From the IMG/VR virus record IMGVR_UViG_3300046096_000285, positions 1 through 64,000 of that record: DNA of 64,000 nucleotides; one strand, given 5' to 3'. Source of the DNA: a virus. Shown here one piece after another: positions 37,035-55,527 of the stretch (the stretch's first letter is position 1; each line of letters starts with the position of its first letter). Position numbers and translations under genes: made by a program. The notes beneath the pieces are model-generated. The model saw only the letters and a program-made list of their open reading frames with translations, had not been told where the DNA came from and did no database searches.

Positions 37035-37036
37035 CC

Positions 37037-38321: not shown

Positions 38322-38503
38322 CTAGTAGCTCAGCTCCTTCCCAACTTCCAACGAAGCCTGGGACCTGAATGCTGAATTTAGTCCCGTATTCATTTTTTCA
38401 ATACACGTATTCATTTTTTCACAAGAGCAAAACACCCGCTGCGTGATTTGACTCGCCGAACCTTTTCTGCTAAGTTTGACCTAAGCAATGAAAGGACGGA
38501 AAA

Positions 38504-39034
38504 ATGCACGTTGCGCACATACTGCTTGTTCAAGCAGACTCAGCAGAGGACGCCTTTGAGAGGGTCGAAAGCGAACTATCACCAACTGACTATGGAGTTC
38601 GACCAGAGTGGTCAGACTGGCACAATGCCAACAACTCAGCAGAGATGAACTTTGCTGGTCGTTGGACTGGTTCATTCTTCAAGAGCGATAAAGAGGACGA
38701 GCCAAACCCAAACCACCTTTGCTACGCAGATGACAAGGCGCTCGCAGAAAGTGTTATCTCTGACCAGTTAGCCATGCGTGACGCGGAGATTGCCAACATT
38801 AGAAAGAACATGGTTTCAGACCTTTCTACTGTCACAATCAACCACTACGCAGAAAAGTGGAACATGGATTACTGGTATACCCAGAAGTTCCTCAAGTTGG
38901 CAGATAACGAGTGGACTCCAGACTCATACATTTATGACCTAGAAACCAGCACAGCGTCACTTCACTGGTTCATGGAGCGTGTCATGCTCGTGCCAAAGAA
39001 GCAGTTTCTGGTTCCTGTGGACTTCCATTATTAG
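38504..39034 (+). CDS. cassette gene, hypothetical
   Basis: AAGGACGG RBS; WSDW...AGRW...FLVPVDFHY. Confidence 0.8.
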   Translation: MHVAHILLVQADSAEDAFERVESELSPTDYGVRPEWSDWHNANNSAEMNFAGRWTGSFFKSDKEDEPNPNHLCYADDKALAESVISDQLAMRDAEIANIRKNMVSDLSTVTINHYAEKWNMDYWYTQKFLKLADNEWTPDSYIYDLETSTASLHWFMERVMLVPKKQFLVPVDFHY

Positions 39035-39063
39035 AAGTGGAGAAGTGGTGATACACTTTTCTT

Positions 39064-39519
39064 ATGAAATCAATAGACAGATTTACAACTAAATACAAAA
39101 TCAATCTAGAAACAGGCTGCTGGGACTGGATAGCAGGGACATCGGCTGGGTATGGAGCGTTCGCGTACGAGCGCGGCAAAAAAGCCCATAGATTCTCGTA
39201 CGAATACCACAACAACACCATTCTCGGCGAACTGACTATCGACCACTTATGTAGGAATACACTGTGCGTAAATCCAGAACACTTAGAGGCAGTACCTAAG
39301 GGGGAGAACTCTAGGCGCAGAAATCTCAACCACACCTATAAGAAAAAAGAAGTCTGTAAGAATGGACACTTCATAGGAAAAAATGAATACGTCAGACCAG
39401 ATGGCTACTCTGAGTGCCTACTATGTAGGAGTGATAGAGGTAAGGCTTATAGGGAGAAGCATGGAGACGAGCATAGAGCCAAACTTCGTAAGTATTACCA
39501 CGACAAAAAAAATAAATAA
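39064..39519 (+). CDS. HNH homing endonuclease
   Basis: GCWDW...GYGAF...AHRFSY...DHLCRNTLCVNPEHL; leaderless; AT-rich. Confidence 0.92.
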   Translation: MKSIDRFTTKYKINLETGCWDWIAGTSAGYGAFAYERGKKAHRFSYEYHNNTILGELTIDHLCRNTLCVNPEHLEAVPKGENSRRRNLNHTYKKKEVCKNGHFIGKNEYVRPDGYSECLLCRSDRGKAYREKHGDEHRAKLRKYYHDKKNK

Positions 39520-39608
39520 AAAACTTTCAAAATAGACTTGACACTTCGAACGAATGGTGTAAAGTTATCAGTAGGTGGAAATCACCACCCAAAAAGTAAG
39601 GACGGAAA

Positions 39609-40079
39609 ATGACAACAATCGTTGAGCCAGTAGTCGAGACAGGTAAGCCAGCAATCGCTGGTGTTGGTATCTATCTCGAACTCGTGCCAAAGGGCGACAA
39701 CCCACACAACAAGACCACCCAGATTTTGTTTACCCCACAAGGTATGACAGAAAAGGGTCAGCCAGTAGGACTCGCCATGATTTCTCGTGAGGTCTCAACT
39801 TGGTCGCCACGCAAGCAATGGAGGCACAACTTCTCTCGCTTGACAGCAGAGCAAGAAGCACTCGCACCAGCAGACCAAGCACTCGCACTAATCGCTCGTT
39901 TCGAGACTTCTCTCAAGCGTGAGATTTACTATGGCTACGAACTACGCAACAAGCCAATCGTTTTCGAAGTTACCAACCTAGACCTCGCCGAGGTTCTGGA
40001 CTGGAAAGCACCTGCTTCGGCACTACGCCGAATCCAAAAGGCACGAGTATCTCTCGGCTTTCCAGAGAAGTTAGTTTAG
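39609..40079 (+). CDS. cassette gene, hypothetical
   Basis: AAGGACGG RBS, promoter at 39538. Confidence 0.75.
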   Translation: MTTIVEPVVETGKPAIAGVGIYLELVPKGDNPHNKTTQILFTPQGMTEKGQPVGLAMISREVSTWSPRKQWRHNFSRLTAEQEALAPADQALALIARFETSLKREIYYGYELRNKPIVFEVTNLDLAEVLDWKAPASALRRIQKARVSLGFPEKLV

Positions 40080-40102
40080 TCAAGGAATAGGACGGAAAAA
40101 TC

Positions 40103-41143
40103 ATGACTACAACCACAGCAACCCCAGCACCAGCAACACGCTCAATGGACACCATTGAGGTAGACGAACTGTTCGCCAATCTGACAGGTATGCTTTTCAG
40201 CGTGGCTGTTCAGGACAAGGACGCAAGTCTCAAGTCTCCAAATCTCGACTCCCTAATGCCACCTGCCGCTCGTGCTAATCTTAGAGCAAAGGCTGGCACA
40301 GGACAGGTAAAGGTAGCGAAGAAGTCAATGGTCAATGTTGAAGCACTAGAGGGTGTCGAGAAGTATCCTCGCCCAAATGGTCAGGATTACTACGCTCGCC
40401 CTTGGGGTGAACACACAGACATCGAGGTTCTCCGCAAGGCTCGAACTGCTGACCAGTTTGTTCTCCTCTATGGTGCGCCCGGAACTGGTAAGACTGCCGC
40501 TGTTGAAGCAGCGTTCCCAGACGAACTTTACACAGTCTTGGGTTCAGGCGACACCGAAGTTTCTGACCTCGTTGGAGGGTATGTTCAGACTCCAAGTGGC
40601 GGCTTCGAGTGGGTGGACGGTTCTCTCGTTCGCGCCGCCGAAGAGGGTAAGGTTCTTCTCATTGACGAGATTGGTCTCATTGACCCAAAGGTCTTGTCAA
40701 TCGTTTATGGTCTCATGGACGGACGCAGGGAATACACCGTCACAGCGAACCCAGAGCGCGGAACTGTCAAGGCGAAAGAGGGCTTCTATGTAATCGCCGC
40801 GACTAACCCAAATGCCCCAGGAGTTCGCCTATCAGAGGCGTTGCTATCTCGCTTCTCACTCCAAGTTGAAATGACAACTGACTGGGGTCTTGCCAAGAAG
40901 TTGGGCGTTCCAGTAATCGCTGTAACTGCCGCGCAGAACCTTGCGAAGAAGCAGAGCAATGGAGAAGTTTCTTGGTCTCCACAAATGCGTGAGTTGCTCA
41001 ACTTCAAGACAGTCTCGACCTTGTTTGGTTCGAAGTTCGCTGTCGAGAACCTCGCAGGTTCAGCACCAGAACTTGACCGTTCTGTTGTGGTAGATGTTCT
41101 GACCCGAGTGTTCGGCGAAGAAGTCAAGCCAGCCAAGATTTAG
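40103..41143 (+). CDS. MoxR/CbbQ-type AAA+ ATPase
   Basis: GAPGTGKT, DLVGGY, WVDGSL, LLIDE, AATNP, EALLSRF. Confidence 0.9.
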   Translation: MTTTTATPAPATRSMDTIEVDELFANLTGMLFSVAVQDKDASLKSPNLDSLMPPAARANLRAKAGTGQVKVAKKSMVNVEALEGVEKYPRPNGQDYYARPWGEHTDIEVLRKARTADQFVLLYGAPGTGKTAAVEAAFPDELYTVLGSGDTEVSDLVGGYVQTPSGGFEWVDGSLVRAAEEGKVLLIDEIGLIDPKVLSIVYGLMDGRREYTVTANPERGTVKAKEGFYVIAATNPNAPGVRLSEALLSRFSLQVEMTTDWGLAKKLGVPVIAVTAAQNLAKKQSNGEVSWSPQMRELLNFKTVSTLFGSKFAVENLAGSAPELDRSVVVDVLTRVFGEEVKPAKI

Positions 41144-41264
41144 CAACACCGTCCGTTGCTAATCGGGGAGTGTCAAAAAAGTTTTCGAATGGACTTGACA
41201 CTCCCCACCCACTTATGCTACTTTGTTGGTAGGACGAAACACCAACACGAATAAAGGACGAAAC

Positions 41265-43037
41265 ATGGCACACTTATCTAGACTCTCAACTCGCACGAGT
41301 TCAACTCCTGTCGAGTGGCTCAAGACCTGTTCACACATTGGCGAAGTTGCTAATGCTTGGGCTGGTCGTGGAGACCTTGCTGTCTACGCTGGCGAGGACG
41401 CTGGCATGGGCGAGGCACTTGCTTGCTTCATTATCGAGACAGCAGAAATCGAAATCAACCTACCAAAGGCTTTTGGCAAGGCGACCACTCCAGAAATGGT
41501 TGGCGACCTACGCTTGCGCGAAGTTCAGTATGACTGGGCAGAGCCAGTTGGCGTTATCTATCACGAGGCACTTCACGCTCGTTACACCACTTGGAACATG
41601 GAGGCACTCAAGGAGAGTCCAAAGGTCGAGATTGACGCTTTCATGTTGCTAGAGGAGTCACGCATTGAAGCACGAGGCGCACGACTAATCCCAAGTAACA
41701 AGTTGTTCTTGCGCTCGTCTGCCCTTGGTCTCTCGATTGGTGACATGGCAGAGGCTGTCAAGGACATGAGCGAGGTCTGGGCGACTGCCAACCTCGCAGG
41801 TCTGGCACTTGCTCGTGTAGACGCTGGCGTTCTCGAAGCGAGTGATGTCACGATTATCGAGGGCAAGGTTCTCGAGATTCTGGGCGAGGACTTGCTTGGC
41901 AAGTTGCGTTCAGTCTGGGTTCGCTTTCAGGCACTAGAGACTTCACAAATGGAACAGGGCAAGGCACTCGCTCAAGAGTGGGTCGAGTTGCTACGCGAGG
42001 CAGACCCAGAGGGCGAACCTCAAGAGGGTGGCGCAGGTGGCGCAATGTCACAGGCACTCCAAGACTTGATTGACGCGCTTGGCGAGGCTGCTGGCGATAC
42101 TGCTGTTCAGGTCTCGATTGACATGGGCGACCAGCAGGATTCAGAGGAACGCAAGGCAGAGGCAGAGGAACGCGCCAAGGAAAGCAAGCGACAGAACGAC
42201 AACAAGCAGGAGTCGCGCGAAGTGTTCACTCGCTCGAATGGCTCGACTGGTTCTGGGTCAGATTCACGACTCCAAGAACAGCGCAACCCAACTGGACACG
42301 AACGCGCCGCCGCTGTTCAGATTGCCAAGATGTTGGAAAAGGCAAAGTATCGTGAACGCTCGCTCACCGAAATCAAGAGCCACGCGCCACAGGGTCGCCT
42401 CAAGGCTCGCGTTGCTATTCAGAACGCCGCCGCGAAGTCGCGTGGAGTTCGTGAGACACAGCCAGCGTGGGTCGCCAAGAAGCGCAAGCACACAGACGAC
42501 CCGAACCTAAGCATTGGTGTCATGGTGGACATTAGCGGCTCAATGAGTTCGGCAATGGAGGCAATGGCAACTACGGCGTGGGTCATGGGAGAAGCAGGTC
42601 GCCGCGTTCAAGCCAAGACCGCAATGGTCTACTTCGGCTCGGGAGTGTTCTCGACTCTCAAGGTCGGTCAGAAGTTGGACAAGGTTTCGGTCTACTCCGC
42701 GCCAGACGGAACGGAGAAGTTTGACAAGGCGTTCAAGGCACTAGACGGCGAGTTGAACCTGACCTACGGCGAGGGTGTTCGTATGTTGGTCGTTGTATCA
42801 GACGGACAGTTCACCAGCGTAGAAATGGAAAAGGCTCAAGCCGCGGCTCGCCTTTGTGACCGCAACGGAGTCGCGCTTCTTTGGATTACGCCAGAGGCTT
42901 GCTGGAGTGGCAAGGGTCAAGCCTTGCTCAACGGCACGAGCGGCGTGGTTCTGGACAAGATGAAAACAGACGAGATTGCGCTCGCTATCGGTAAAGCCGC
43001 CGCCGAAGCACTCGGTAAGGTGGGTTCAAAGTTCTAG
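41265..43037 (+). CDS. VWA (CobT-like) partner protein with HExxH motif
   Basis: HEALH, LLEESRIE, DISGSM (MIDAS), VVSDG; start at ATG after AAGGACGAA. Confidence 0.85.
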   Translation: MAHLSRLSTRTSSTPVEWLKTCSHIGEVANAWAGRGDLAVYAGEDAGMGEALACFIIETAEIEINLPKAFGKATTPEMVGDLRLREVQYDWAEPVGVIYHEALHARYTTWNMEALKESPKVEIDAFMLLEESRIEARGARLIPSNKLFLRSSALGLSIGDMAEAVKDMSEVWATANLAGLALARVDAGVLEASDVTIIEGKVLEILGEDLLGKLRSVWVRFQALETSQMEQGKALAQEWVELLREADPEGEPQEGGAGGAMSQALQDLIDALGEAAGDTAVQVSIDMGDQQDSEERKAEAEERAKESKRQNDNKQESREVFTRSNGSTGSGSDSRLQEQRNPTGHERAAAVQIAKMLEKAKYRERSLTEIKSHAPQGRLKARVAIQNAAAKSRGVRETQPAWVAKKRKHTDDPNLSIGVMVDISGSMSSAMEAMATTAWVMGEAGRRVQAKTAMVYFGSGVFSTLKVGQKLDKVSVYSAPDGTEKFDKAFKALDGELNLTYGEGVRMLVVVSDGQFTSVEMEKAQAAARLCDRNGVALLWITPEACWSGKGQALLNGTSGVVLDKMKTDEIALAIGKAAAEALGKVGSKF

Positions 43038-43270
43038 GATTCCACTAGCGCAACGGTAGGCTTTCGGGTTCGTTCATGCCCGCCTCCTTTCCCTATCGGC
43101 TACTGGATAGAGACCCTCGACAGATTCGTCCCTGTCGGGGGTTTCGCACTTTCGGCGAGCGCAGGTCGTATTCATTTTTTCATTCTGTCTTTCGACTTCT
43201 GACGAAAGATGTTTGACACTCGTTTGAAGTATGCTAAGTTTGAACTATTCCTAGAAAGGGGAAAACAGAA

Positions 43271-44197
43271 ATGCCAAATCACGTTTGGAACAGCATTGGG
43301 GTTTCAGGGGCTATCGCTGACATTGAAGCGTTCGTTGCTAAGGCTGGCAAGCCACACATTACAGAGTTCAAGGGCAAGCGTTATCAGGACGAAACTGGCG
43401 CTTGGAAGTATGACCCAGAGATTATTGACACCCACGAGGACACAGACCCATTCTCATTCTGGAACTTCATAAAGCCAGACGACGAGATTCTTCCTGTCTA
43501 CTTTGGACACGAGAAGTCAGAGAAGCCAGAGGGCTACGAGGGCTGGGACTTCGCGGAGAAGATGGCGCACGACCTCAAGTTCACAGGCAACAACGCATAC
43601 GACTGGAACGTTCGCAACTGGGGAACCAAGTGGGACGCATACGACCAGACCTTCGACGGCGTGACAACTGACGAAGCGATTGGAAAGGCGAGTGCGACTT
43701 ACAGTTTCAATACGGCGTGGAGTATCCCAGTTCCAGTATTTGAAGCACTCTGCGAACAGCACCCAGAGTTGAGTTTCTCGTTTGAGTCGGAGGAGGAACA
43801 GGGCTGGGGCGCGACTTACGAGTCAAGCGCGGTAGACGACCCAGAGGACGGCGAGCCTACATCCGCACTACTTCTCATCAGCGAGTGGGACATCCCTGAG
43901 AGCCACGCAGAGTTGGTAGCCCGAGGGCGAGAATGCCACTGCGAGTATGACGACGACGAGGACTCGTGGTATGACGACTGCCCTCGTGAAGAACGAGTGT
44001 TCACCGTTGTCGTTGAGCAGACTTTCGTGGTCAAGGCGACGGACGCAGAGAAGGCTTGGGAACTTGCCGAGGAACACCTCAACAAGCCGATTGAGAACTT
44101 GCCAGAGGGAGTCGAGCAGTCGGATGAGTATTCGCTGTTCGTCAAGAACCCAGAGACTGGCGAGCGTTTGTATCCGACACTCGGAGGGGGTGAGTAG
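43271..44197 (+). CDS. DUF1281/YubB-like acidic protein
   Basis: MPNHVWN...YDWNVRNWGTKWD...FNTAWS.P. Confidence 0.75.
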   Translation: MPNHVWNSIGVSGAIADIEAFVAKAGKPHITEFKGKRYQDETGAWKYDPEIIDTHEDTDPFSFWNFIKPDDEILPVYFGHEKSEKPEGYEGWDFAEKMAHDLKFTGNNAYDWNVRNWGTKWDAYDQTFDGVTTDEAIGKASATYSFNTAWSIPVPVFEALCEQHPELSFSFESEEEQGWGATYESSAVDDPEDGEPTSALLLISEWDIPESHAELVARGRECHCEYDDDEDSWYDDCPREERVFTVVVEQTFVVKATDAEKAWELAEEHLNKPIENLPEGVEQSDEYSLFVKNPETGERLYPTLGGGE

Positions 44198-44443
44198 CGT
44201 GGCAACACCAAAGACACCGAAGCCGAAGATGGGCAACGGCGCAACGACTCGTCTGACAGACGGACGACGCAAGTAGCAGAGGGAGAGGGCGAAAGCCCTC
44301 TCTTTTCTTTTGCCCCTCGTATTCATTTTTTCGTCATTGCCACGCCGATACACGCCGCGATTTGACACGAGTTTGGAATAGGGTATAGACTACGAGAGTA
44401 GTCAACGAGGAAATGCCTCGACTACACAAAGGAGGGGATTGAA

Positions 44444-44836
44444 ATGGCAACTGCCGAACTTCAATCAGCACAGGTTGCTAAGGCGACCACCAGCATTACC
44501 AGCACCACAGAGGACAACCTAGTTGTTCTAACCCCTGCGATTCAGAAGCAGGTCAAGGCACTACGCGAGGCTCGCAATGTAGCGAAGCAGGCAAAGGCTC
44601 TAGGGGATACAGCACGAGACGTTATCTTGGAGTTCGTGGGGGAGACCACCACCAACCTCGTGGGCGTGGACGCAAAGGGCAAGCGTTTGATTAGCCTCAA
44701 GTTGATTCCAAGTTCAGAGAGTTTCGACTGGGCACGACTTCAACTTCAGCAGCCTGAGTTGTTCGAGATGCTCAAAAAGGAATACACCATTCCTCGTGGG
44801 GCAGGCGCACCAACTCCACGAGTGGACACGATTTAG
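44444..44836 (+). CDS. cassette gene, paralog of 48451-48777
   Basis: coiled coil then FDWARLQLQQPELFE. Confidence 0.75.
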   Translation: MATAELQSAQVAKATTSITSTTEDNLVVLTPAIQKQVKALREARNVAKQAKALGDTARDVILEFVGETTTNLVGVDAKGKRLISLKLIPSSESFDWARLQLQQPELFEMLKKEYTIPRGAGAPTPRVDTI

Positions 44837-44999
44837 TCCACTCACGAAAGTCGCTGGCGAGAGTTCCCCTCTCTCGCTGGCGATTTTTTGTATGGAGGCT
44901 GTATTCATTTTTTCATTAGATCCATAACTTCCAACGAATGGTTTGACTTGGAGATAACAAACTGGTAAAGTGGAAGTAACTCAACCAAAGGGGATTCAA

Positions 45000-45452: not shown

Positions 45453-45454
45453 GT

Positions 45455-45679
45455 ATGAGAAAAGACATCAAGCAACTACGGATACTCGCAGAGCAACAAG
45501 GCTGGAGAGTAGAGCGCACTAACGGCGACCACTTACGGTGGCTCGCGCCAGAGGGTGGCATGGCTATCTACTCGGCAAGCACACCGTCTAATGCTCGCGG
45601 AATACTCAACCTCAGAGCGCAACTGCGTAAAGCGGGTCTACATTTAGAGAAGCACGGCAAGCAAAAGGTGAACGCATGA
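45455..45679 (+). CDS. HicA-like small protein
   Basis: AEQQGWRVERT.GDHLRW...STPS...NLRAQLRKAG. Confidence 0.6.
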   Translation: MRKDIKQLRILAEQQGWRVERTNGDHLRWLAPEGGMAIYSASTPSNARGILNLRAQLRKAGLHLEKHGKQKVNA

Positions 45680-45972
45680 AACTGTATCGGCAAGCACTAG
45701 GCGAGGTTCTGCGCGAAGCAAGAACGGTGAGGGGTCAGACCCTGCGACAAGTCTCAACGGCTGCCTCGTGCGCCCTCGGATACCTGTCGGAGTTGGAGAA
45801 CGGACACAAGGAAGCGTCCTCGGAGATTTTGGAGGGGCTTGCCCGTGCGCTCAAGGTGACGGTGAGTGAACTCGCTATCCGTGCTGGCTTGCGTATAGCG
45901 GAGGAGAGTATCCCTGATACCCCTGCCGAACTCTACGAGGAAGCACCGGCCCTCATTCCTCACCGAGGATAG
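45676..45972 (+). CDS. XRE HTH regulator, ClgR-like
   Basis: LGEVLREAR..GQTLRQVS...LGYLSELENGHKEASSEIL. Confidence 0.8.
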   Translation: MKLYRQALGEVLREARTVRGQTLRQVSTAASCALGYLSELENGHKEASSEILEGLARALKVTVSELAIRAGLRIAEESIPDTPAELYEEAPALIPHRG

Positions 45973-46086
45973 CCTCGGGTGGTAACCCCGTATTCATTTT
46001 TTCAACAACCGACACGGCGAGCGCAATACTTGCTTGACGGCTTGCCGTAGGGTATAGTTGGACTATCCAATGAAAGGGGTTGCCAA

Positions 46087-46482: not shown

Positions 46483-46658
46483 AGACCTTACCGAACAGAT
46501 AGAGAAAACGCGGGAACTTGCTATCCCGCGTTTTTTCATAGTCGGGGTCGTATTCATTTTTTCAACCGGCACGACACTTCACACTAAGATTTGGAAGTTG
46601 GCACGGAAAGTGGTAAGGTTGAACTATCACCGAAGACAAGGGTGAGAAAAGGGAAGAG

Positions 46659-46959: not shown

Positions 46960-47133
46960 AAGTCACGCTCACCGAAAGGTGGGCGTTTCTTTTACGCCGC
47001 ATCGCGTATTCATTTTTTCACCAACACAGTGGCGATTACTCACAACAACTCACGAATGATTTGATTTTGTCCTAGCAGGGTGATAAGTTTGATTTGTTGC
47101 CGAAGTTCAGTAAGCAACGAAAGGGGCAACAAA

Positions 47134-47463
47134 ATGGGTAACAGGGCTTGGATTCAGATTTCAGCAGAGCAGTTTGAAACACCTATCAGCCTTTATGGTC
47201 ACTGGTCGGGCGAGGACAACCTCACCGCCGTAGTCAAGACCCTAGAGAGTTCAACACGCATTGGGGATGTGTCATACCTCACAGCACAGATTTTCTTCCA
47301 CTTCACGCAACTAGGTGGCTACACAGGCGACACAGGGTTTGGCATTTCGACAGGCGAAGCCCCTAGCGTAGACGATGTGGACACCGTTTATGTGAACGCT
47401 GATAATGGTGAGTATACTTATCAGGGCGTAACTCACCACGAGTTTGCGCTAATGAAGGCTTGA
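47134..47463 (+). CDS. cassette gene, hypothetical
   Basis: GAAAGGGG RBS; MGNRAWI...LYGHWSG. Confidence 0.8.
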   Translation: MGNRAWIQISAEQFETPISLYGHWSGEDNLTAVVKTLESSTRIGDVSYLTAQIFFHFTQLGGYTGDTGFGISTGEAPSVDDVDTVYVNADNGEYTYQGVTHHEFALMKA

Positions 47464-47706
47464 GTCGAGGTCGAGTCCACCACTCCCTTGATTCATTGGG
47501 TTAGGGTTAGCCCCCTTTCCCTAACCCCGAACGCCAGTAGATAATCCCCTTATCTACTGGCGTTCACCATTTCTCAGGGATACGAGGCGTATTCATTTTT
47601 TCCTCGAGCTCAGACACGACGCAACAACTCACGAATGATTTGACTTGATACGAGTTATGTGTTACTTTTGTATTGCCTTTGAAAAGGCAGAAAGATAAGG
47701 GGCAAC

Positions 47707-48114
47707 ATGGAAAAGGTATTAGAGATTCGCAAGTTTGAGATTAGCTCAGACTGTTCATGCGAGGTATACGACGAGGACACAGACACGTCTTCACCAAGCG
47801 ACGAGTGTTTCAACTGTTTCGCCGACGACAAGGATAATTTCAAATACGTGATTCTTCAGCCATGGCTTGAGGCTAATGGTTGGGATGAGGACACAGTTGT
47901 TTATGTGTTCAGCGCGAACATGAACTGGAATCACGTCGCGGGATGGACAAACGTCTACGCGAGAGAGGCTATCGACTGCCTAACTTTGAATGGCGAGTTT
48001 ACCCTTAGTTACAAGTTGGATGGCAAGAACTTGACTTGCGTTCGTTCAAGCCACGACGAACATGGCGCGTTGTTCACGTTCAGTGAGGCACAGAAGGATT
48101 ATCGCGATGAGTAA
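47707..48114 (+). CDS. cassette gene, acidic hypothetical
   Basis: GATAAGGGG RBS. Confidence 0.8.
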   Translation: MEKVLEIRKFEISSDCSCEVYDEDTDTSSPSDECFNCFADDKDNFKYVILQPWLEANGWDEDTVVYVFSANMNWNHVAGWTNVYAREAIDCLTLNGEFTLSYKLDGKNLTCVRSSHDEHGALFTFSEAQKDYRDE

Positions 48115-48271
48115 CCTAGTGTTCACCGGCCCTCGCGCCGTTCTCTCTCAGTTGTCTGCCGATTCGACAGTCATGTTCTCTCAGTTGATAGAGGATGACG
48201 AGTTGGTCGCGATGGTGTTAGCCAAGAAGCCATACGACACGTTGCTTGAATACGTGAACGAAAACTACTGA
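48107..48271 (+). CDS. cassette gene, small hypothetical
   Basis: overlapping start MSNLVFT. Confidence 0.6.
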   Translation: MSNLVFTGPRAVLSQLSADSTVMFSQLIEDDELVAMVLAKKPYDTLLEYVNENY

Positions 48272-48450
48272 GTCACGACAGGGAAGCCCCGCGGAAACGC
48301 GGGGTTTCTTTTTGCCCGCGGGAAGTCGCCGTATTCATTTTTTCAGCGAGCCTAGAGCCGACACGCTTAGGATTTGGTGTTTTTTGAAATAGGGGGTATC
48401 ATTGACTTATGAAGTCAATAAGGCTTCACTAAATAGAAGGGGGTCGCCAA

Positions 48451-48777
48451 ATGGCTACCAAGATTCAGAAGGCAACCGCGGTTGTCACCGAGGCTCGCAA
48501 GGTCTCAAAGGTTGTTGTTGCTAACGCCGAGCGTCTAGCGTTCGTTCGTGCCGAGGTTATTCGTCTAGAGGCAGAAGCCAAGCTCTTGCGCGATGGGCTT
48601 ATCGCGGTTGCCGATGGCGCAACTACTCTTGTCCACAACAACATCGCCATCGTTGAGATTTCACCACGCTCAACCTCACGCGTAGACTCGAAGGCGTTGA
48701 AGGTTATGTTTCCTGAAGCATACGAGGCAACACTCAAAGTCACCGTATCACCTGTCGTGGATGTTCTGAAGCGATAA
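48451..48777 (+). CDS. cassette gene, paralog of 44444-44836
   Basis: coiled coil then RVDSKALKVMFPEAYE. Confidence 0.8.
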   Translation: MATKIQKATAVVTEARKVSKVVVANAERLAFVRAEVIRLEAEAKLLRDGLIAVADGATTLVHNNIAIVEISPRSTSRVDSKALKVMFPEAYEATLKVTVSPVVDVLKR

Positions 48778-49001
48778 ACGCCACGAGGAAGCCCCCTAGG
48801 ATTCTCTAGGGGGTTTTTCCTTACCCTAAACACGCCAAGCCCGCCACGAGGCACACAGCCCCGCCACGAGGGCGTATTCATTTTTTCGTCAAAACACGCC
48901 AGCTGAGGATTTGATTTGACAAGTGTCCGGCTTATGGATAAGATTTAGTTATAACTAAATAGATGCACCACTCAATGCACCACCAACCTAAGGGGATTCA
49001 A

Positions 49002-49331
49002 ATGGCAACTATGGCACCTGCTACCAACACCACTACCAAGTTCGACCTAGGCGCGACTCTAGACGAGCCGACCACCGCATCAGTCGTCACCGAGGTCGAG
49101 AAGTTCGACAACACTATGGTCTATGCCAAGACTTCACTAGAGATGTTCGTTAGCGCGGATAACGTGGATGACACAGTCTACCTTGACCTTCGCCAACTCA
49201 ACTTTGTACGACTGGGCCCAACCGACGAAGAACAGATGCACGTATTCACCACCTTGCTCAACCACCGCTTCACTCGCGAGCAGGCCGAGGCACTGGTCGC
49301 CACGTTCACTCACGAACTCGCGAAACTCTAG
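49002..49331 (+). CDS. cassette gene, hypothetical
   Basis: AAGGGGATTCAA-ATG. Confidence 0.75.
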   Translation: MATMAPATNTTTKFDLGATLDEPTTASVVTEVEKFDNTMVYAKTSLEMFVSADNVDDTVYLDLRQLNFVRLGPTDEEQMHVFTTLLNHRFTREQAEALVATFTHELAKL

Positions 49332-49484
49332 CGAGCGCGACAAGCCCCTGTCGAAAGGCAGGGGTTTTGTCATTCCCCGGCTGTATTCATTTTTTCACAA
49401 GAAGACACAGGAGTGGGCTGAGATACTATGTTTTGTCCGAGGGGTTTGATAAAATGGGAGTATCCAAATGAAAGGGGATAAAGA

Positions 49485-49841
49485 ATGACAAACTACAGCG
49501 ACGTGGAAGTTGCTCTTGAGAACGCTAAGGCGATTGCTTGGGACACCTGCCACAAGATTTACGTTCTAATGGATGACGAGCAAGTTGAGAAGATGCGCGA
49601 GTACGAGTACGACCCTCTAATCACGAGCGACGAGATGGACCCTAGCGAAATGCTGTCCACGATTCAAACTTGGTATGAGGACTCTTGCGGATTGCGTTTC
49701 GTAGAAAGCGTCACCACAAATCACGAAGACCCTAACCTTGGGTTTGAAAGTCTGATTCCACAGGGCGCGGATGACGAAGATGACGACACCGACGAATCTG
49801 AAGACGACTACTTCGATGACGAGGATGACGAAGATGAGTAA
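49485..49841 (+). CDS. cassette gene, very acidic protein
   Basis: AWDTCHKIY...SCGLRF; D/E tail. Confidence 0.8.
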   Translation: MTNYSDVEVALENAKAIAWDTCHKIYVLMDDEQVEKMREYEYDPLITSDEMDPSEMLSTIQTWYEDSCGLRFVESVTTNHEDPNLGFESLIPQGADDEDDDTDESEDDYFDDEDDEDE

Positions 49842-50034
49842 GTTCGCGTTCAACCTAGTTCTCAAGACTGATTACATCGAAGCAGAGAACATCGAAGAAG
49901 CAGAGAAGTTGCTGAACAAGTACATCGATGGGCTGGCTATGGTTGGTGAGCCTGAGATTACTTGGGACGAAGTTGACTGGCAGACCTTTGAAGGCGACCT
50001 AGTAATCAAAGACTTTAGTTCGCCCCTCAACTGA
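49834..50034 (+). CDS. cassette gene, small acidic protein
   Basis: overlapping start MSKFAF. Confidence 0.65.
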   Translation: MSKFAFNLVLKTDYIEAENIEEAEKLLNKYIDGLAMVGEPEITWDEVDWQTFEGDLVIKDFSSPLN

Positions 50035-50199
50035 GCACGAAGAAGAACGCTCTCGAAAGAGGGCGTTTTTTCTCAGGCCCGTTGTATTCATTTTTTCAAC
50101 TGGCGACACGGGGGGTTGGTCGAAAGTTGCGAAGGTTTGTCGAAAGTAGTAAAGTAGTTCTGTTGGCAAAAGCCAGCGTAAAGGGATAAGGGGTTTGAA

Positions 50200-50424
50200 A
50201 TGAAGTTTGTAGTTCGTAGAGCAGTCATTGGAGTTCTAGCAGTTCCAGCAGTAGCCGGTGCGTATGTGTTTGGGTATCTAGGTCTGTTGCTTCTAGGCGC
50301 GGAGGGTGCGCTCAAGATTGAAGAAATCTGGAACAATGGAATGTTGATTGGTGGCGTGTGTGCCGTAATGCTCGTGTTCGCGCCACAGGTAAACAAGTTC
50401 CTCGACAGGGTTACTGGAGAGTAA
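50200..50424 (+). CDS. cassette gene, two-TM membrane protein
   Basis: two hydrophobic helices; GATAAGGGG RBS. Confidence 0.75.
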   Translation: MKFVVRRAVIGVLAVPAVAGAYVFGYLGLLLLGAEGALKIEEIWNNGMLIGGVCAVMLVFAPQVNKFLDRVTGE

Positions 50425-50650
50425 AAGACTTGGCAGGGTTTATCCCCCTATCCCCTGCCCAAGAAAAGAGCGTGACCATTCCGCTCACGGCTAGGCACTT
50501 CCCCCAAGTGTCTAGCCTTTTTCTTTGCTCGGAAGTGTATTCATTTTTTCACCCTGCGACACGCGGATACAGATTGGATTTGCGCTCGCCGAGGATTTCC
50601 TGTAATGTAGTTCTTGTAGCCAGCAAGGGGTTGGCAGACAAGGGGTTCAA

Positions 50651-50808
50651 ATGCTAAAGACTTCAACAGCCGAGTGCGTAGATTGCGCGGTTGCTATCAC
50701 CAGCGACAACACGCAAGACGAGGGTGGAAAGTTTGCTTCACCACAGGGGGAATACGCTATCTGCGACAACTGCGCCAATGCTCGCATTGACGCTTACCTA
50801 GAGAACTA
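50651..50808 (+). CDS. cassette gene, small zinc finger
   Basis: CVDC...CDNC; AAGGGG RBS. Confidence 0.6.
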
Positions 50809-50821
50809 AGGGGCAGGGAAA

Positions 50822-51046
50822 ATGGCCGACTCAATGAAAGGTTCTGGGATTGACTCCGAGGACTACACCGCTTGGTTCTTTTGCTCACATTGTGACGAGG
50901 AACTGGAACTTGATGGAAAGTCAGACGACTATGGGATTATTGCGACAGCCGAGTGTCCTAAGTGCCGTTCAACCCTAGAGGTTGAAATGCCTAGCAAGGA
51001 ACAGTTGCGCGAGGACTACCTAGCCGACTACGACCCAAACAACTAA
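50822..51046 (+). CDS. cassette gene, acidic zinc ribbon
   Basis: CSHC...CPKC. Confidence 0.7.
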   Translation: MADSMKGSGIDSEDYTAWFFCSHCDEELELDGKSDDYGIIATAECPKCRSTLEVEMPSKEQLREDYLADYDPNN

Positions 51047-51291
51047 ATAGACTTACCTAGCGCGGGCAACTTCGCTAGGTGGGAGAGAACCGAGTAACCC
51101 CCTTGCTCGTGCGACTCCGAAAGAGCCAGACACTAATCCCCTTGTGTCTGGTTCTTTTGTTTCTACGGTGCTATTCATTTTTTCAGCAAGACTCCCCCGG
51201 GCGTGTCGATTTGCGCCACCCTGGTTGGGGTGCTACAGTTGATACTGTAGTCAGGAAGCAGATAGCGGAGGGCTACACGCAAGGGGAAGAA

Positions 51292-51627
51292 ATGTCTTCA
51301 ATCATTACTGTTCCAGTTCAGTTCCAGGCCGAGGACTTCTGGAGTGAAATCATGGGTTCAGCCTGGGAGACCTGGGACTGGTGGGTGACCCTGGACTACA
51401 GCCAGGGCGCGTCCTGGGACAAGGTTGGCGAAATCACCGTTACATCCTGGGACGGCGAGACCGAGGGCGAGACCCTAGTCACCAAGACCCTCACCATCCA
51501 GGACCTGGCTGAGTCTTACGGCAAGTGCCTGGCCGAAGGGTTCCGAATCAACATCCACGACCTGGACGCCGGCCAGGGCGACGTCATCCTTCAGATGGCA
51601 ATGTTCGGAGAAGTCGTCTACGGATAG
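51292..51627 (+). CDS. cassette gene, acidic hypothetical
   Basis: start MSSIIT after AAGGGG; DAGQGDVILQMAMFGEVVYG. Confidence 0.8.
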   Translation: MSSIITVPVQFQAEDFWSEIMGSAWETWDWWVTLDYSQGASWDKVGEITVTSWDGETEGETLVTKTLTIQDLAESYGKCLAEGFRINIHDLDAGQGDVILQMAMFGEVVYG

Positions 51628-51664
51628 TTTCACCAGGACGCCCCTCGGCAGAAATGCCGGGGGG

Positions 51665-51715
51665 TTTTCCACAGCCTGTGGAAAGTTATCCACAGACTTA
51701 TCCACATGTGGATAA
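51665..51715. promoter_or_regulatory. cluster of DnaA boxes
   Basis: TTATCCACA at 51686 and 51698, TGTGGATAA at 51707 (perfect); TTTTCCACA at 51665 and TGTGGAAAG at 51677 (near). Confidence 0.85.
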
Positions 51716-51860
51716 CTTTTTTTGGAGAGGTCTATTCATTTTTTCGTCAAACGACACGCACTTACGGAGACGATTTGACAGCTGCCAAAAACCCGAGTAG
51801 GCTTACTAATGTAATCAGGAAGCCAAGGGGGCGGAGGGTTACTGAAGGGGTGGGGTTCCA

Positions 51861-52199
51861 ATGGGACTTCTTATCAGCGTGTATCGGTCGGACTACGACA
51901 GCAAGGCAAATGTTTTCCACGGAAAGCGTCAGCTAGTTCTCGTGAATGTCGAAGGGCCATTCCAGCCATCAGACAACGCACCAGCTGCCAAGTTGGTTCA
52001 GGGTCACGGTAAGACCGCAATCATCGTGCCAGCGGACGAAGGCTTTGACGGCGTTCAGATGAACGGCGGAACTTACGGCTCAACCAGCGACAGTCGCTTT
52101 CAGCGAGCCGTAGAGGGACTAGTCGGAGTCTCACACTTTGCGGTGGCAATCCACGACCGTCGTGAGTCGTGGGCGGAATACGAGCAGTTCAGCCAGTAG
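51861..52199 (+). CDS. cassette gene, hypothetical
   Basis: MNGGTY.STSDSRF...VAIHDR. Confidence 0.8.
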   Translation: MGLLISVYRSDYDSKANVFHGKRQLVLVNVEGPFQPSDNAPAAKLVQGHGKTAIIVPADEGFDGVQMNGGTYGSTSDSRFQRAVEGLVGVSHFAVAIHDRRESWAEYEQFSQ

Positions 52200-52354
52200 G
52201 CAACCAAGCGAAAGGCTCACCCGAAGGGGTGGGCTTTTTTCTTGCTCGTTAGTCTATTCATTTTTTCATCCGGATGCGGGGAAGCTTGCGCGGTTCGTTG
52301 GAAGTTGGTAAAGTTGGAGTATCAACCAGATTGGTTGAAGATAAGGGGCTTCAA

Positions 52355-52702
52355 ATGGAAAAGATTGGTTTGGTAGTGGACTCGGAGTTCACCGCGTCTG
52401 TGACCAGGTTGTCACTCAAGGAACTACAAGCTGCGGTCGATGGTCTGATTCAGCCGATTGACATTCGCGAGGGCTTGACTATGTGGGTAAACGAGGAGTT
52501 CTTGTTTCGCTCAGAACCAGACGCAAACGTTTTGGCTAGTGCGTTCTTCGCTGAGGCTGGTGGAAAGTATGACATCCACGGAACTGTCGTCTTCACTGGT
52601 GGCACGGATGAGGATGGCAACACTCTCGGGCTGTCAGACGAGCACCGCGAGTTAGTGGAGTCGCTCTGTAAGTTCGGGATTGGCGTTCGCGAAATGGCTT
52701 AG
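52355..52702 (+). CDS. DUF3846-like protein
   Basis: LKELQAAVDGLIQ...MWVNEE...N.LAS...I.GTVVFTG..DEDG. Confidence 0.8.
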   Translation: MEKIGLVVDSEFTASVTRLSLKELQAAVDGLIQPIDIREGLTMWVNEEFLFRSEPDANVLASAFFAEAGGKYDIHGTVVFTGGTDEDGNTLGLSDEHRELVESLCKFGIGVREMA

Positions 52703-52874
52703 ATTTCAAAAAAGGAAAGTCCGGCTTCGGTCGGGCTTTTTCTTTTTCTCGGGGCTATTCATTTTTTCCTTCAGCTCGCAGACAACACACGGAAGTTCGT
52801 GGGAAGTTGCGTAGGCAGGGCGTTTCGATTAGGCTTAGGTCATAAGCCAAATGGTTTGGCGAAAGGGGATTCAA

Positions 52875-53108
52875 ATGGCAACCAAGAACGCGAACGCAGA
52901 TTTCGTTTTCGAACTCGTTATGAAGATGGCGGGCGGGGCGGACAAGTATTCAATCCACACTCAGGGCGCAATCTGGGCTGAGTGTCAGCGCAACTCATCA
53001 CTACAAACGCTAGCGGGAATGTATCTCGTTGGTTCATCAGCACGCGCAGAGAACAACCTAAAGAAGTTGCGCTCTGCCGTTTACTCAACATTCCTAGAGA
53101 GGAACTAA
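52875..53108 (+). CDS. cassette gene, hypothetical
   Basis: GAAAGGGGATTCAA-ATG. Confidence 0.7.
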   Translation: MATKNANADFVFELVMKMAGGADKYSIHTQGAIWAECQRNSSLQTLAGMYLVGSSARAENNLKKLRSAVYSTFLERN

Positions 53109-53110
53109 TA

Positions 53111-53338
53111 ATGGCAATGTCATACGGAGAGCGTAAAGCGCAAGCAATCGCTAGGCGTAATGCGGAACTACTCACGCGAGATTCTATGTTGGAGATTCGC
53201 AGTATTCTAAGTCCAATGCCCTACGCGCCTAAGTCGGTGCTAGAGGGCGTGCCGTTCGTAATAGAGAACTTGACCCCAATGGAATTAGATGTGGAGTTCG
53301 TGGGCGACACAATCACAATCAAAGAAGCGGTGCGCTAA
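53111..53338 (+). CDS. cassette gene, hypothetical
   Basis: GAGG RBS, MAMSYGE. Confidence 0.65.
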   Translation: MAMSYGERKAQAIARRNAELLTRDSMLEIRSILSPMPYAPKSVLEGVPFVIENLTPMELDVEFVGDTITIKEAVR

Positions 53339-53467
53339 TGCGGGCGTGGCACTTGCTCAAGTATCGAACTTGGCGCGTGGTCGGTTCGCTGGCGTTCGGT
53401 CTGTATCACCGCTCTGCTCAATGGTCTCACGAAGCGTTCGTGCGGGCTGGCAAGTCTGGTGCGGACA

Positions 53468-53635
53468 ATGACTAGGGGCGAGAGTCTGGCTGTTCTTTTA
53501 CGCTCGGTGGCTGGCGGTCTGGGATTTGTCTGGCTGTTTGGTTTTGCCGTTGGCTGGCAAGACCCTGTATCGCCGTTCGTTGTTTCCACACTTGCCGTTG
53601 GATTCTTGTGGGGTGCGTGGCGCGTGGGTCGTTAG
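53468..53635 (+). CDS. cassette gene, small two-TM protein
   Basis: MTRGESLAVLL...GFLWGAWRVGR; below track cut-off. Confidence 0.5.
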   Translation: MTRGESLAVLLRSVAGGLGFVWLFGFAVGWQDPVSPFVVSTLAVGFLWGAWRVGR

Positions 53636-53775
53636 TGACCCCGCGTTCGCGCTTGCGTGCGGACTATTCATTTTTTCCCTAATCCCCCTGCGGGCACACG
53701 GATGATTTGACTTTCATTTGCGGAGTAGGGTAGGCTAGTCGTAGACCAGCCAAGGGGGCTGGGGAGAGGGGCATC

Positions 53776-53925
53776 ATGATTCACATCTTCTGTGCGGACT
53801 GCGACGGCTGGGACTCGTTCCCATCTGGCGGGTCACACAACTGCGAGACCGTCGAGTTCGTTACCAACCCATCCGCTGGGTTCATCGGTGGCGACTGCTG
53901 GTTCGGGGACGACTCGGACTACTAG
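53776..53925 (+). CDS. cassette gene, small Cys/Asp protein
   Basis: GAGGGG RBS; CADC. Confidence 0.55.
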   Translation: MIHIFCADCDGWDSFPSGGSHNCETVEFVTNPSAGFIGGDCWFGDDSDY

Positions 53926-54119
53926 GCGAAAGCCTAGCCAACCCCTCACCTTCGGGTGGGGGGTTTCTTTCTGTTCGTGAGAAGTTGTCTGTGCGGGAGT
54001 GCTATTCATTTTTTCCCTAGGCGACACGCTTGCGGGGGGTATGATTTGACTTTGCCGGAGGATGTGTTAGGCTAGTCCTAGGACAAGCCAAAGGGGCTTG
54101 CCAGAAAAGGGGATTCAAA

Positions 54120-54290
54120 ATGTTCGGTCAGACTTTCTCAGGAATCGAAATCACTGTTCGCGAAGCAAACGGCTCAATCGTATGTGCGCCAACCTACGAA
54201 GCACACACCACGGCGAAGCAGTTGGAACTTATCAACGCAACCAAAGCAATGCTTACCGCTGGTCGCTCAATCACTTGGCGTTTGTTCTAA
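54120..54290 (+). CDS. cassette gene, small hypothetical
   Basis: AAAAGGGGATTCAAA-ATG. Confidence 0.6.
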   Translation: MFGQTFSGIEITVREANGSIVCAPTYEAHTTAKQLELINATKAMLTAGRSITWRLF

Positions 54291-54465
54291 GCCAACTTCC
54301 AACGAAGCCCGTCACCTCGGTGGCGGGTTTTGTTTTGCCCTGTGGGTCTATTCATTTTTTCGTCAAGTCGGGCATGCGGGTGACACGATTTGATTCGCGC
54401 ACCGTAAAGTGCTAAGCTCATGGGTAGAGCTTCAAAGGGGGGCTCAATAGTTCAAAGGGGTATTT

Positions 54466-54615
54466 ATGTTTGGGTTCAACGAGTGCGCACACTCTGAGTC
54501 GGAATCGTATGGCACTAGCCAGATTCATTGGGATGACCGCTCTGCGGGTATCGGCTGGGTTCAAGCTCCGTGCGCTGAGTGCGGGGAATCGCTAACATGG
54601 GTTATCAACGCATGA
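54466..54615 (+). CDS. cassette gene, small hypothetical
   Basis: AAAGGGG RBS; CAEC. Confidence 0.5.
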   Translation: MFGFNECAHSESESYGTSQIHWDDRSAGIGWVQAPCAECGESLTWVINA

Positions 54616-55358
54616 GCGCCCTGCTAGCAACCCGCGAGACTACTGCGGGCATTATCGCGGGGATGCTTACCGAAAACACTGGTCGGAGCTTCCTAGACTC
54701 TGGGGGTGAATCGGGACGTGCGTGGCAGAGAAACGCGGGCATGACCGTGGCAGACTTTGAAGCCCGCCCTGCGGGTACCTATGACGCTGAGTATGAGACG
54801 CTTACGGTAGACACATTCCATTACTTGAATGAGCTACTAACCTTTGACGCTGAGCGCACTGCGGAATGGGTGACCTTTGACGCTGAGCGGTCGCACCTAT
54901 CGTGGGGCGAAACTTTGGATGAATGGCTTGACACTCTAGGCGTCCCTGCCGAAGGGGGTGGGGATTTTTACTCTAACGCGCGATGGGGATTCAACAGCTA
55001 CAACTTTGATGGGTGTTTGCTGAGCTCCACGATTCAGGGCGTCAAGTTTGTCTCTGCGGGCACTGAGTACCTAGCCCTTCAGATTCATGGCGGGGCTGAC
55101 GTGCGGGGCGGTTACACGGCATTCAAGATTTTCACTGGAGACATTGAATCAGTGATTCTCGGGACTACTCGCGCAACCCTGCGATGCCCTGAGTGCGACT
55201 TTTATGCGGGCTACTCCGATGGCATGTTGGAAGATTACTACCTAGGTGACGCGCTAGCTGACCCGAACATGTTGATTGAGATGGATGTGCCTACGGAGCT
55301 CCCTGCGGGATGGGCAATCTCTGACGGTTGCCCTTTGCATAAGGTCGCTCTGGTTTAG
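54612..55358 (+). CDS. cassette gene, hypothetical
   Basis: MLTENTGRSFLDSGG...RAWQRN...LQIHGGADVRGGYT; ATGA coupling. Confidence 0.8.
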   Translation: MSALLATRETTAGIIAGMLTENTGRSFLDSGGESGRAWQRNAGMTVADFEARPAGTYDAEYETLTVDTFHYLNELLTFDAERTAEWVTFDAERSHLSWGETLDEWLDTLGVPAEGGGDFYSNARWGFNSYNFDGCLLSSTIQGVKFVSAGTEYLALQIHGGADVRGGYTAFKIFTGDIESVILGTTRATLRCPECDFYAGYSDGMLEDYYLGDALADPNMLIEMDVPTELPAGWAISDGCPLHKVALV

Positions 55359-55527
55359 CTCTACTCGGGAACCCCTGCTTCGGCGGGGGTTTTCGCATGT
55401 GCGGGGGAGCTATTCATTTTTTCCTGCTCTGCAACGAGTGCGGGCGTGATTTGACAAGTTTCGAATAGCTGATAGGATTTAGTCATAACTAAATAGCTCC
55501 AATTAACCGACAACCAAAGGGGACAAC

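Follow-up and report, generated by a model that had tools for sequence, protein, structure and literature searches.

The phage and its array of small genes

The DNA considered here is a 64-kb window, meaning the whole stretch that was analysed (positions 1 to 64,000 of the IMG/VR record IMGVR_UViG_3300046096_000285), and its subject is a 13-nucleotide word, TATTCATTTTTTC, repeated in front of small-gene units of a phage. The window is the first part of a 73.8-kb viral contig, with a CheckV completeness of 44%, which comes from freshwater metagenomes; the phage is uncultured. Its genes include a class Ib ribonucleotide reductase, a thymidylate synthase, endolysins, a large terminase with a putative intein, a CobS-like AAA ATPase with a CobT-like partner, and a WhiB-like protein (16256-16573). 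In a WhiB search of 14 control genomes Corynebacterium was the sole match, and the nearest named relative of the phage is Actinomycetia phage DSL-LC01; together, these two sequence matches identify the host as an actinobacterium.

The array at 38-56 kb contains about 45 small genes, the majority of which have no family match; those that do encode an SSB, a HicA-like protein paired with an Xre-type helix-turn-helix (HTH) protein, an HNH endonuclease, a DUF3846 protein and zinc ribbons. No known phage matched the array in Megablast, a more distant search gave matches limited to the AAA-ATPase/cobalamin-biosynthesis (CobS/CobT-like) genes of DSL-LC01 and Pumpernickel, and an Rfam search of 37-58 kb found no family. 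Neither an integrase nor an immunity repressor turned up in Pfam/PHROG scans covering part of the open reading frames (ORFs) of the window. The small array genes are mostly without counterpart in the related phages, among which the gene content at the units varies.

An invariant word at a fixed distance from predicted promoters

The array comprises 21 small-gene units, each with one identical TATTCATTTTTTC about 28 bp 5' of an ordinary bacterial-type promoter. There are 22 exact copies on the + strand, from 38387 to 55411, and one on the – strand (39377-39389). The + copies are restricted to approximately 17 kb, in the early small-gene region, and none lies ahead of structural or late genes on the 73.8 kb; the reversed word, used as a control, gave 0 matches, and no degenerate copies tied to the array were found. 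The word is asymmetric, without TGTGA/TCACA half-sites, and all 13 positions are invariant in the 22 copies, whereas the –35 and –10 hexamers are variable. With the exception of the distal tandem copy at 38387, every + copy is located 96-128 nt ahead of the first ATG of a unit of 1-3 genes. A terminator always lies just 5' of the 13-mer: ahead of most units there is a hairpin with a T-run (–17 to –25 kcal/mol), and the predicted promoters follow these hairpins (hairpins were taken from ViennaRNA local folds, whose stem ends are fuzzy because A-runs pair with T-runs).

The promoters, all of them predicted, were called as the best –35/–10 pair at most 90 nt 3' of each copy by means of a sigma-70 weight matrix that is blind to spacing. 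The resulting features are listed below; the gap, in bp, runs from the end of the 13-mer to the start of the –35 element.

38387..38399, + strand: distal tandem 13-mer, 21 bp (start to start) 5' of the next copy
38408..38476, + strand: cassette; 13-mer 38408-38420; gap 27; –35 TTGACT 38448-38453; –10 TAAGTT 38471-38476; ATG 38504
39377..39389, – strand: reverse 13-mer copy, inside the HNH homing-endonuclease coding sequence 39064-39519 (+)
43169..43240, + strand: cassette; gap 31; –35 TTGACA 43213; –10 TAAGTT 43235; ATG 43271
44320..44391, + strand: cassette; gap 29; –35 TTGACA 44362; –10 TAGACT 44386; ATG 44444
44902..44971, + strand: cassette; gap 28; –35 TTGACT 44943; –10 TAAAGT 44966; spacer with AACTTCCAACGAA at 44926-44938, abutting the –35
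45991..46058, + strand: cassette of the SSB gene (46087); CGACACG 46010-46016, 7 nt past the 13-mer; gap 26; –35 TTGCTT 46030; –10 TATAGT 46053
46551..46619, + strand: cassette; gap 27; –35 TTGGAA 46591; –10 TAAGGT 46614
47007..47089, + strand: outlier cassette; gap 41; –35 TTGATT 47061; –10 TAAGTT 47084; block CAACAACTCACGAATGATTTGA in common with the 47590 cassette
47590..47668, + strand: outlier cassette, paralog of the 47007 promoter; gap 37; –35 TTGACT 47640; –10 TACTTT 47663
48332..48402, + strand: cassette; gap 29; CGACACG 48359-48365; –35 TTGGTG 48374; –10 TATCAT 48397
48875..48944, + strand: cassette; gap 28; –35 TTGACA 48916; –10 TAAGAT 48939
49384..49455, + strand: cassette with the weakest promoter call; gap 31 (30 in the earlier note); ATGTTT 49428; TAAAAT 49450
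50085..50155, + strand: cassette; CGACACG 50104-50110, 7 nt past the 13-mer; gap 29; –35 TTGCGA 50127; –10 TAAAGT 50150
50538..50608, + strand: cassette; CGACACG 50557-50563; gap 29; –35 TTGCGC 50580; –10 TAATGT 50603
51172..51239, + strand: cassette; gap 26; –35 TTGCGC 51211; –10 TACAGT 51234
51733..51803, + strand: cassette; CGACACG 51752-51758; gap 29; –35 TTGACA 51775; –10 TAGGCT 51798
52255..52314, + strand: outlier cassette with ambiguous promoter; called gap 18; TTGCGC 52286; TAAAGT 52309; reversed TTCGTTGGAAGTT at 52294-52306, from 26 nt past the 13-mer
52756..52835, + strand: outlier cassette with ambiguous promoter; called gap 38; TTGCGT 52807; TAGGCT 52830; reversed TTCGTGGGAAGTT at 52796-52808, from 27 nt past the 13-mer
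53665..53736, + strand: cassette; gap 29; –35 TTGACT 53707; –10 TAGGCT 53731
54003..54073, + strand: cassette; CGACACG 54022-54028; gap 30; –35 TTGACT 54046; –10 TAGGCT 54068
54349..54418, + strand: cassette; gap 28; GACACG directly 5' of the –35; –35 TTGATT 54390; –10 TAAGCT 54413
55411..55478, + strand: last cassette; gap 27; –35 TTGACA 55451; –10 TAGGAT 55473

In order along the array, these independent calls give gaps of 27, 31, 29, 28, 26, 27, 41, 37, 29, 28, 31, 29, 29, 26, 29, 18, 38, 29, 30, 28 and 27 bp. The list obtained in an earlier note on this DNA is thereby reproduced except at the weak 49384 promoter (31 versus 30), as are its count of 17 out of 21 gaps at 26-31 bp and the position of the tandem 38387 copy, 21 bp 5' of 38408. 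The 17 gaps have a mean of 28.35 bp (standard deviation 1.41); the remainder are 18, 37, 38 and 41, and the tandem copy stands at 48. With the transcription start site assumed 7 nt past the –10 hexamer, the centre of the word falls at –68 to –72 in 17 sites and at –60, –79, –80, –83 and –90 in the others, relative to the predicted promoters. The promoter consensus of the cassettes is gATTTGa(c), 16-18 bp, TG-n-TAag-T, with an extended –10 TG in most.

The fixed distance between the 13-mer and the promoter exceeds chance. The median absolute deviation is 1 bp for the interval from 13-mer to –10 and 2 bp for that from 13-mer to –35, the tightest in the cassette, as compared with 4 bp from the terminator stem to the 13-mer and 6-7 bp from either the –10 or the 13-mer to the ATG. 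Since no other interval of the cassette is as tight as that to the promoter, and the spacer between the 13-mer and the –35, which is GC-rich, is not conserved in sequence, the 13-mer is coupled specifically to the promoter.

Two observations on single sites belong here. The sole reverse-complement copy, against a chance expectation of about 0.002 for an exact 13-mer, lies in the coding sequence of an HNH homing endonuclease (HNH_3, E 4e-9; gene 39064-39519, + strand) inside the array, where it reads ...GKNEY.... The terminator hairpin at 51665-51715, 5' of the 51733 cassette, is made of TTATCCACA-like (DnaA-box-like) repeats, atccacagacttatccacatgtggataac.

Lineage-private words in related phages

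The relatives compared were 76 related viral loci together with DSL-LC01, retrieved with the CobT-like protein. Many of them carry, between terminator and promoter, an invariant word of their own that ends in a T-tract: GTATCCACTTTTTTAC in L123/L125 (14-16 copies), TGTAAATTTTTTA in L137, AACTGAAATTTTTTA in L160/L171/L178 and AACTGAACTTTTTTA in L170. L181 has an inverted version of the T-tract word, and in L197 the word occurs on both strands, its orientation following the genes. The tract of five to six Ts is the sole part common to all the lineage words. In a relative of 129.6 kb the word is likewise restricted to approximately 17 kb. At orthologous intergenic sites of L123/L125 and L124 the flanks are nearly identical, and the difference consists of a replaced block with the word at its centre (alignments A1 and A2).

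In the sister lineage L123/L125, whose word is GTATCCACTTTTTTAC, the gap is 27-32 bp at 10 of the 14 sites that were scored (counted from where the T6 tract ends, which makes it one base longer than the gap of the earlier note), and the modal distance is the same as in the window. The recurrence of this distance with a different word, the invariance of all 13 positions and the fact that the interval to the promoter is the most constrained one all support the earlier proposal that the 13-mer is not just a recombination scar. Scanning of the collection for the 13-mer followed by a gap and ATTTG returned, among the matches listed, single chance matches only, and a scan with types D/E plus TGTCAG added few new lineages.

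Other repeated words were observed in the same material. G002, a contig of L124, carries at 49232-55106 three type-A copies, GTATTCATTTTTT, followed by one type-B copy, GTATCCACTTTTT, and is either a natural recombinant or a chimeric assembly. A population variant co-occurring in run X8 diverges at 51162 and reads ...GGGTATTTATTTTTTT; it may come from a close relative with another allele of the word, TATTTATTTTTTT. In L148, L133 and many other loci, A-rich words (AGTAAAAAGTAAAAA, GGGTAAAAAT) are repeated mostly immediately 5' of start codons, resembling the start-associated sequences of Cluster K mycobacteriophages, and some copies of this type stand between terminator and promoter. In DSL-LC01 (L194), 17 copies of CTAAAGATGTTATAAT, an extended –10, occur at 12410-24930 and beyond, flanked by the inverted repeat GATTCTA...TAGAATC; the arrangement resembles a standardised promoter that is accompanied by an operator-like dyad.

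A second box shared by the group

A second element, CGACACG, occurs in ten copies in the window, six of them within the 21 spacers, and five of these six start exactly 7 nt past the 13-mer; the canonical gap of 28 bp is in fact made of 7 nt, CGACACG and a further 13-16 nt. The box is common to lineages with differing T-tract words and lies 13-16 nt 5' of the –35; the T-tract word is found in those lineages at variable distances, 3-36 nt 5' of the box.

The distance from GACACG to the best downstream –35 was collected over the 77 related loci and the window, giving 146 sites after removal of contexts at least 75% identical, with the residual relatedness of the sites as a caveat. The distances fall into classes of 1-2, 11-18, 21-27, 34-40 and 46-49 bp, and their periodogram peaks at 11.5 bp (R=0.51), a strength equalled by 0 of 5000 jittered sets. 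Scrambled control words gave just 9 and 27 sites, which were scattered. Since these classes are about 11.5 bp apart, the helical-phase signal of the phage group appears to be carried by the shared box. The 146 sites are a far larger natural data set for the helical-phase rules of activation in actinobacterial promoters.

Is the 13-mer helically phased?

The earlier note had read the gaps of the 13-mer as those of a site acting from one face of the helix, with clusters near 18, 28, 38 and 48 bp. At 18, 38 and 48 bp there are 1, 3 and 1 sites, respectively, and the phase argument rests on these four outliers and one tandem copy. The spread of the core, 26-31 bp, corresponds to a rotation of approximately 171 degrees (standard deviation 48 degrees), and with one tight cluster a "fixed distance" and the "same face" are not separable. 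A jitter test on the window gaps (p=5e-5) was dropped as a test of periodicity, for it re-detects the single tight cluster only.

That the outliers stand about one turn away does find some support when they are taken alone: they deviate from in-phase positions by 1.25-1.27 bp on average (p=0.03, or 0.016 if the tandem copy is included, as compared with uniformly placed outliers). However, two of the four promoters are ambiguous and the other two are paralogs. At 52255 and 52756 a reversed AACTTCYAACGAA-type element begins 26 and 27 nt past the 13-mer, i.e., at the canonical start of the –35, and therefore the true promoters of these cassettes may differ from those called. The 47007 and 47590 cassettes share an identical block of 22 nt abutting the –35 and their gaps are nonetheless 4 bp apart.

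Among the relatives, lineages D and E have gaps of 22-29, 36-41, 47-52 and 59 bp, with a best period of about 12 bp (p=0.002 versus jitter), over sites that are paralogous and differ partly by discrete inserted modules; those of lineage C are broad (7-55 bp). Tandem copies in relatives are separated by 22, 25, 28, 28, 38, 39, 40, 44, 48 and 49 bp and do not favour whole turns. In E. coli, Class I activation by CRP declines steeply away from the peaks, except where an UP element or an extended –10 makes the spacing less critical (PMC4132738), and because most promoters of the array have the extended –10 TG, the spread of 26-31 bp would be compatible with phasing but not diagnostic of it. Overall, the phasing claim for the 13-mer is weakly supported. 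Its dependence on the face of the helix, which the earlier note had put forward, is not shown by a core spanning some 171 degrees, thin outlier evidence and doubtful promoter calls, and it is further weakened by tandem copies in relatives that are not whole turns apart and by a word that, in more distant relatives, shifts over 3-36 bp relative to the second box. Such a dependence may exist, with the odds somewhat against it on the present sequences; what the 13-mer has is a fixed distance, and phasing is not demonstrated.

A two-box model and its alternatives

The reading that we favour, at a probability of roughly 45%, treats the 13-mer as the distal and lineage-private half of an upstream control region with two boxes, and as a putative site for a phage factor acting on the adjacent promoter. 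The early promoters would be of the host sigma-A/sigma-70 type (gATTTGa(c), 16-18 bp, TGnTAnnnT), and the canonical order would be terminator hairpin, 13-mer (about –76 to –64), 7 nt, CGACACG (about –57 to –51), 13-16 nt, –35 and –10. A sequence-specific protein may bind the asymmetric word and modulate the adjacent promoter, the binding, the action and the sign of the effect all being inferred, either by activation or by a timed shut-off of early transcription. The binder would most likely be phage-encoded, because the word is rewritten between close relatives, and it may act jointly with whatever reads the group-wide CGACACG box. For the same reason a host reader of the CRP-like or alpha-subunit C-terminal domain (alpha-CTD) kind is unlikely. 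A search of five genomes for sigma-70 region 2 yielded no gene of this family, whether in the 44%-complete contig, in the contigs of relatives that were covered (24-89% complete) or in the complete genome of DSL-LC01, which fits promoters of the host polymerase modulated by a factor. The predicted modal centre near –70 agrees with one of the Class I positions (PMC4132738); this part of the earlier proposal, which had placed the centres near –61, –72 and –82, fits, although it leaves unexplained the promoter-less copies at start codons in relatives.

Several points weigh against this model. In lineages C, D and E the distance of the word from the –35 ranges over 22-80 bp and that from the CGACACG box over 3-36 bp, and some copies in relatives are located directly ahead of a ribosome-binding site or an ATG, in either orientation along with the genes, without a sigma-70-type promoter. 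Identity at 13 of 13 positions in every copy is stricter than is usual for transcription-factor sites, and every promoter in the cassettes is a prediction. Finally, comparison of the array genes with those of the relatives identified no reader protein for the word: the Xre-type HTH protein (45676-45972) is the sole classical DNA-binding protein in the array and was rejected as a specific reader, its homologs being present in relatives without T-tract words.

The copies next to start codons are an argument for an alternative in which the word is itself an autonomous promoter, or promoter element, for a host polymerase re-programmed by a phage factor, as happens at T4 late TATAAATA promoters and SPO1 middle promoters. 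Each cassette would then have two promoters in tandem, belonging to different temporal classes, and the spacing between word and sigma-70-type promoter would result from packing. The gaps of about 20 nt in which the relatives' word precedes ribosome-binding sites or start codons, in the orientation of the gene, leave no room for a sigma-70-type promoter; moreover, the invariance is like that of phage-specific promoters and the CATTTT, CACTTT and TAAATT contained in the words fit the nAnnnT of a –10 element. On the other hand, a sigma factor gene was not found (phage RNA polymerase families were not searched for), there is no conserved partner element 5' of the word, the word is nowhere ahead of structural/late genes on the 73.8 kb, and the tightest interval, that to the –10, is left unexplained; we consider this alternative unlikely. 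The same tight coupling to –10 and –35 is unaccounted for if the word is a stoperator-like roadblock or insulator at which a phage repressor stops polymerase reading through the preceding terminator. A site of 13 bp, asymmetric, multi-copy, oriented with transcription and varying among lineages has the traits of Cluster A stoperators (PMC6550527), it always lies just 3' of a terminator, and the compact intergenic copies in relatives would fit as well. Nevertheless, a word placed 5' of the cassette's own promoter cannot silence that promoter, the copies are confined to 17 kb rather than genome-wide, and the scans mentioned above, covering part of the ORFs, revealed no integrase or immunity repressor, all of which makes a roadblock improbable.

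Processes acting on the DNA itself must also be weighed. The word could be a recombination or nicking site, either a seam for shuffling like that of promoter-early stem-loop (PeSL) cassettes or the target of a nickase or homing enzyme, with the spacing inherited from duplicated cassettes. Strand-specific consensus sequences for nick sites exist in T5-like and phiKMV-like phages. An array of terminators and promoters around small genes is the PeSL architecture (PMC2839356), the gene content at the units differs between relatives, the word is at the centre of the block replaced at orthologous sites, two word types occur together in one contig, and an HNH endonuclease gene in the array contains the sole reverse copy. 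However, descent alone should keep all intervals equally, whereas the interval from 13-mer to promoter is 2-6 times tighter than the others, and 13 bp of homology is short for recombination, so that this alternative is if anything slightly more improbable than a roadblock. The lowest probability is given to a word that acts without any dedicated protein, as a bent or UP-like T-tract aiding the host polymerase (through wrapping by the alpha-CTD) while the flanking letters hitch-hike. The action of UP elements depends on the face of the helix (PMC4132738). The T-tract reading also draws on general knowledge of promoters, in that curved DNA upstream stimulates them in a rotation-dependent manner. 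All lineage words have only the T5-6 tract in common, and a promoter that lacks the word, at 39538, has long A-tracts upstream instead; yet a generic bend would not require 22 copies to be identical at 13 positions, nor would it lead one to expect that close relatives replace the non-T part as a block, and the tract lies at –70 to –65 with a GC-rich spacer before the –35, not at –40 to –60.

Returning to the two-box model, it may be extended to a two-part promoter address, in which the group-wide CGACACG box on one helix face would be combined with a lineage-private T-tract word for a fast-evolving phage factor, an extension that we regard as doubtful. If it is true, each lineage could switch its whole early array on or off without cross-talk from co-infecting relatives, a lytic-phage counterpart of immunity specificities. 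If a phage factor does read the word, it would constitute a new compact orthogonal promoter-control system in Actinobacteria, with natural specificity variants (TATTCATTTTTTC, TATCCACTTTTTT, CTGAAATTTTTT, CTGAACTTTTTT and TGTAAATTTTTT), and it would explain the coordination of dozens of autonomous small-gene cassettes in large lytic actinophages.

Other elements and RNA contigs

A further element, AACTTCYAACGAA, has 14 matches in the window at one mismatch or fewer, versus 0.2 expected. They are located at 28708-38355 (on the strand of the genes) and at 44926, 52294(–), 52796(–), 53974(–) and 54294, often directly 5' of a ribosome-binding site or ATG (e.g., 34808, 36785 and 28708 on the – strand), and the variants AAACTTTTAACGAAT and CTTCTAACGAA recur in the relatives L118 and L119. 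The element may be another promoter or a start-associated signal of a different class of genes.

At 45455-45972 a small HicA-like ORF (weak, E 1.5e-3) is followed by the Xre-type HTH gene (E 8.5e-9), which may form a toxin-antitoxin-like pair. The large terminase gene (59516-61957) is split by a homing-endonuclease/LAGLIDADG module (Hom_end, LAGLIDADG_3), which suggests the intein.

In a metatranscriptome run about 6% of the words were present, as contigs only. One RNA contig, 54086-54310, agrees with the start and terminator predicted for the 54003 cassette, and another, from a relative of 90% identity, starts inside the word; neither was counted as evidence, given that RNA ends are not visible in contigs and that DNA carry-over is possible. 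A junction joining 47029 to 54043 in this run, with a side of 26 nt and low depth, was treated as a repeat artefact.

Comparison with known systems

UP elements and phased A-tract curvature, as in the E. coli rrnB P1 and Bacillus phage SP82 Alu156 promoters, have in common with the array an A/T tract 5' of the –35, and in those systems the face of the helix matters. Unlike those elements, which are degenerate, act through the host alpha-CTD or through shape, and abut the –35 at –40 to –60, the element described here is an exact 13-mer at –76 to –64, followed by a GC-rich, non-conserved spacer; the word is invariant within the array and rewritten between relatives. The consensus sequences of IHF, CRP and Fis were compared with the word by eye and none of them fits.

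Class I sites for CRP in E. coli are located at –61.5, –71.5, –82.5 and –92.5, where the activator contacts the alpha-CTD of RNA polymerase (PMC4132738, citing Gaston 1990 and Ushida & Aiba 1990). The array resembles them in that its upstream site would mostly be centred near –70, and in a few cases near –60, –80 or –90, relative to a predicted sigma-70-type promoter. Most of its promoters carry the extended –10 TG that loosens the spacing stringency of CRP (PMC4132738). It differs in that the word is asymmetric, invariant and lineage-private, does not contain the palindrome TGTGA-N6-TCACA, tolerates spacings of 26-31 bp and belongs to a phage of an actinobacterial host.

The stoperators of Cluster A mycobacteriophages, bound by repressors of the L5 gp71 type (PMC6550527, PMC9283540), are likewise asymmetric sites of 13 bp, present in 20-30 copies in a single orientation relative to transcription, with a consensus that shifts between related phages and an actinobacterial host; the word of the array is likewise a 13-bp, asymmetric, multi-copy site in one orientation with a lineage-specific consensus. 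However, stoperators are mostly not associated with promoters, lie genome-wide and vary slightly, whereas the copies described here are identical, confined to a 17-kb block and locked to promoters, each 18-41 bp 5' of a predicted –35. As for a cognate repressor of this type, the 44%-complete contig offers one Xre-type HTH protein, found also in relatives without T-tract words.

The PeSL cassettes of T4-type phages (Arbiol et al., 2010, PMC2839356) share with the array a repeated terminator and a strong sigma-70-like early promoter flanking small non-essential genes of a plastic region, and the array does have a sigma-70-like promoter and a stem-loop terminator repeated around small ORFs. PeSL cassettes are without an invariant word or a lineage-private code; the array, which is known here from contigs only, has a word 28 bp 5' of the –35. 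While lacking defining features of each of these systems, the layout, as judged by analogy, may work like Class I sites placed on PeSL-like cassettes, with the multiplicity, asymmetry and lineage specificity of stoperators.

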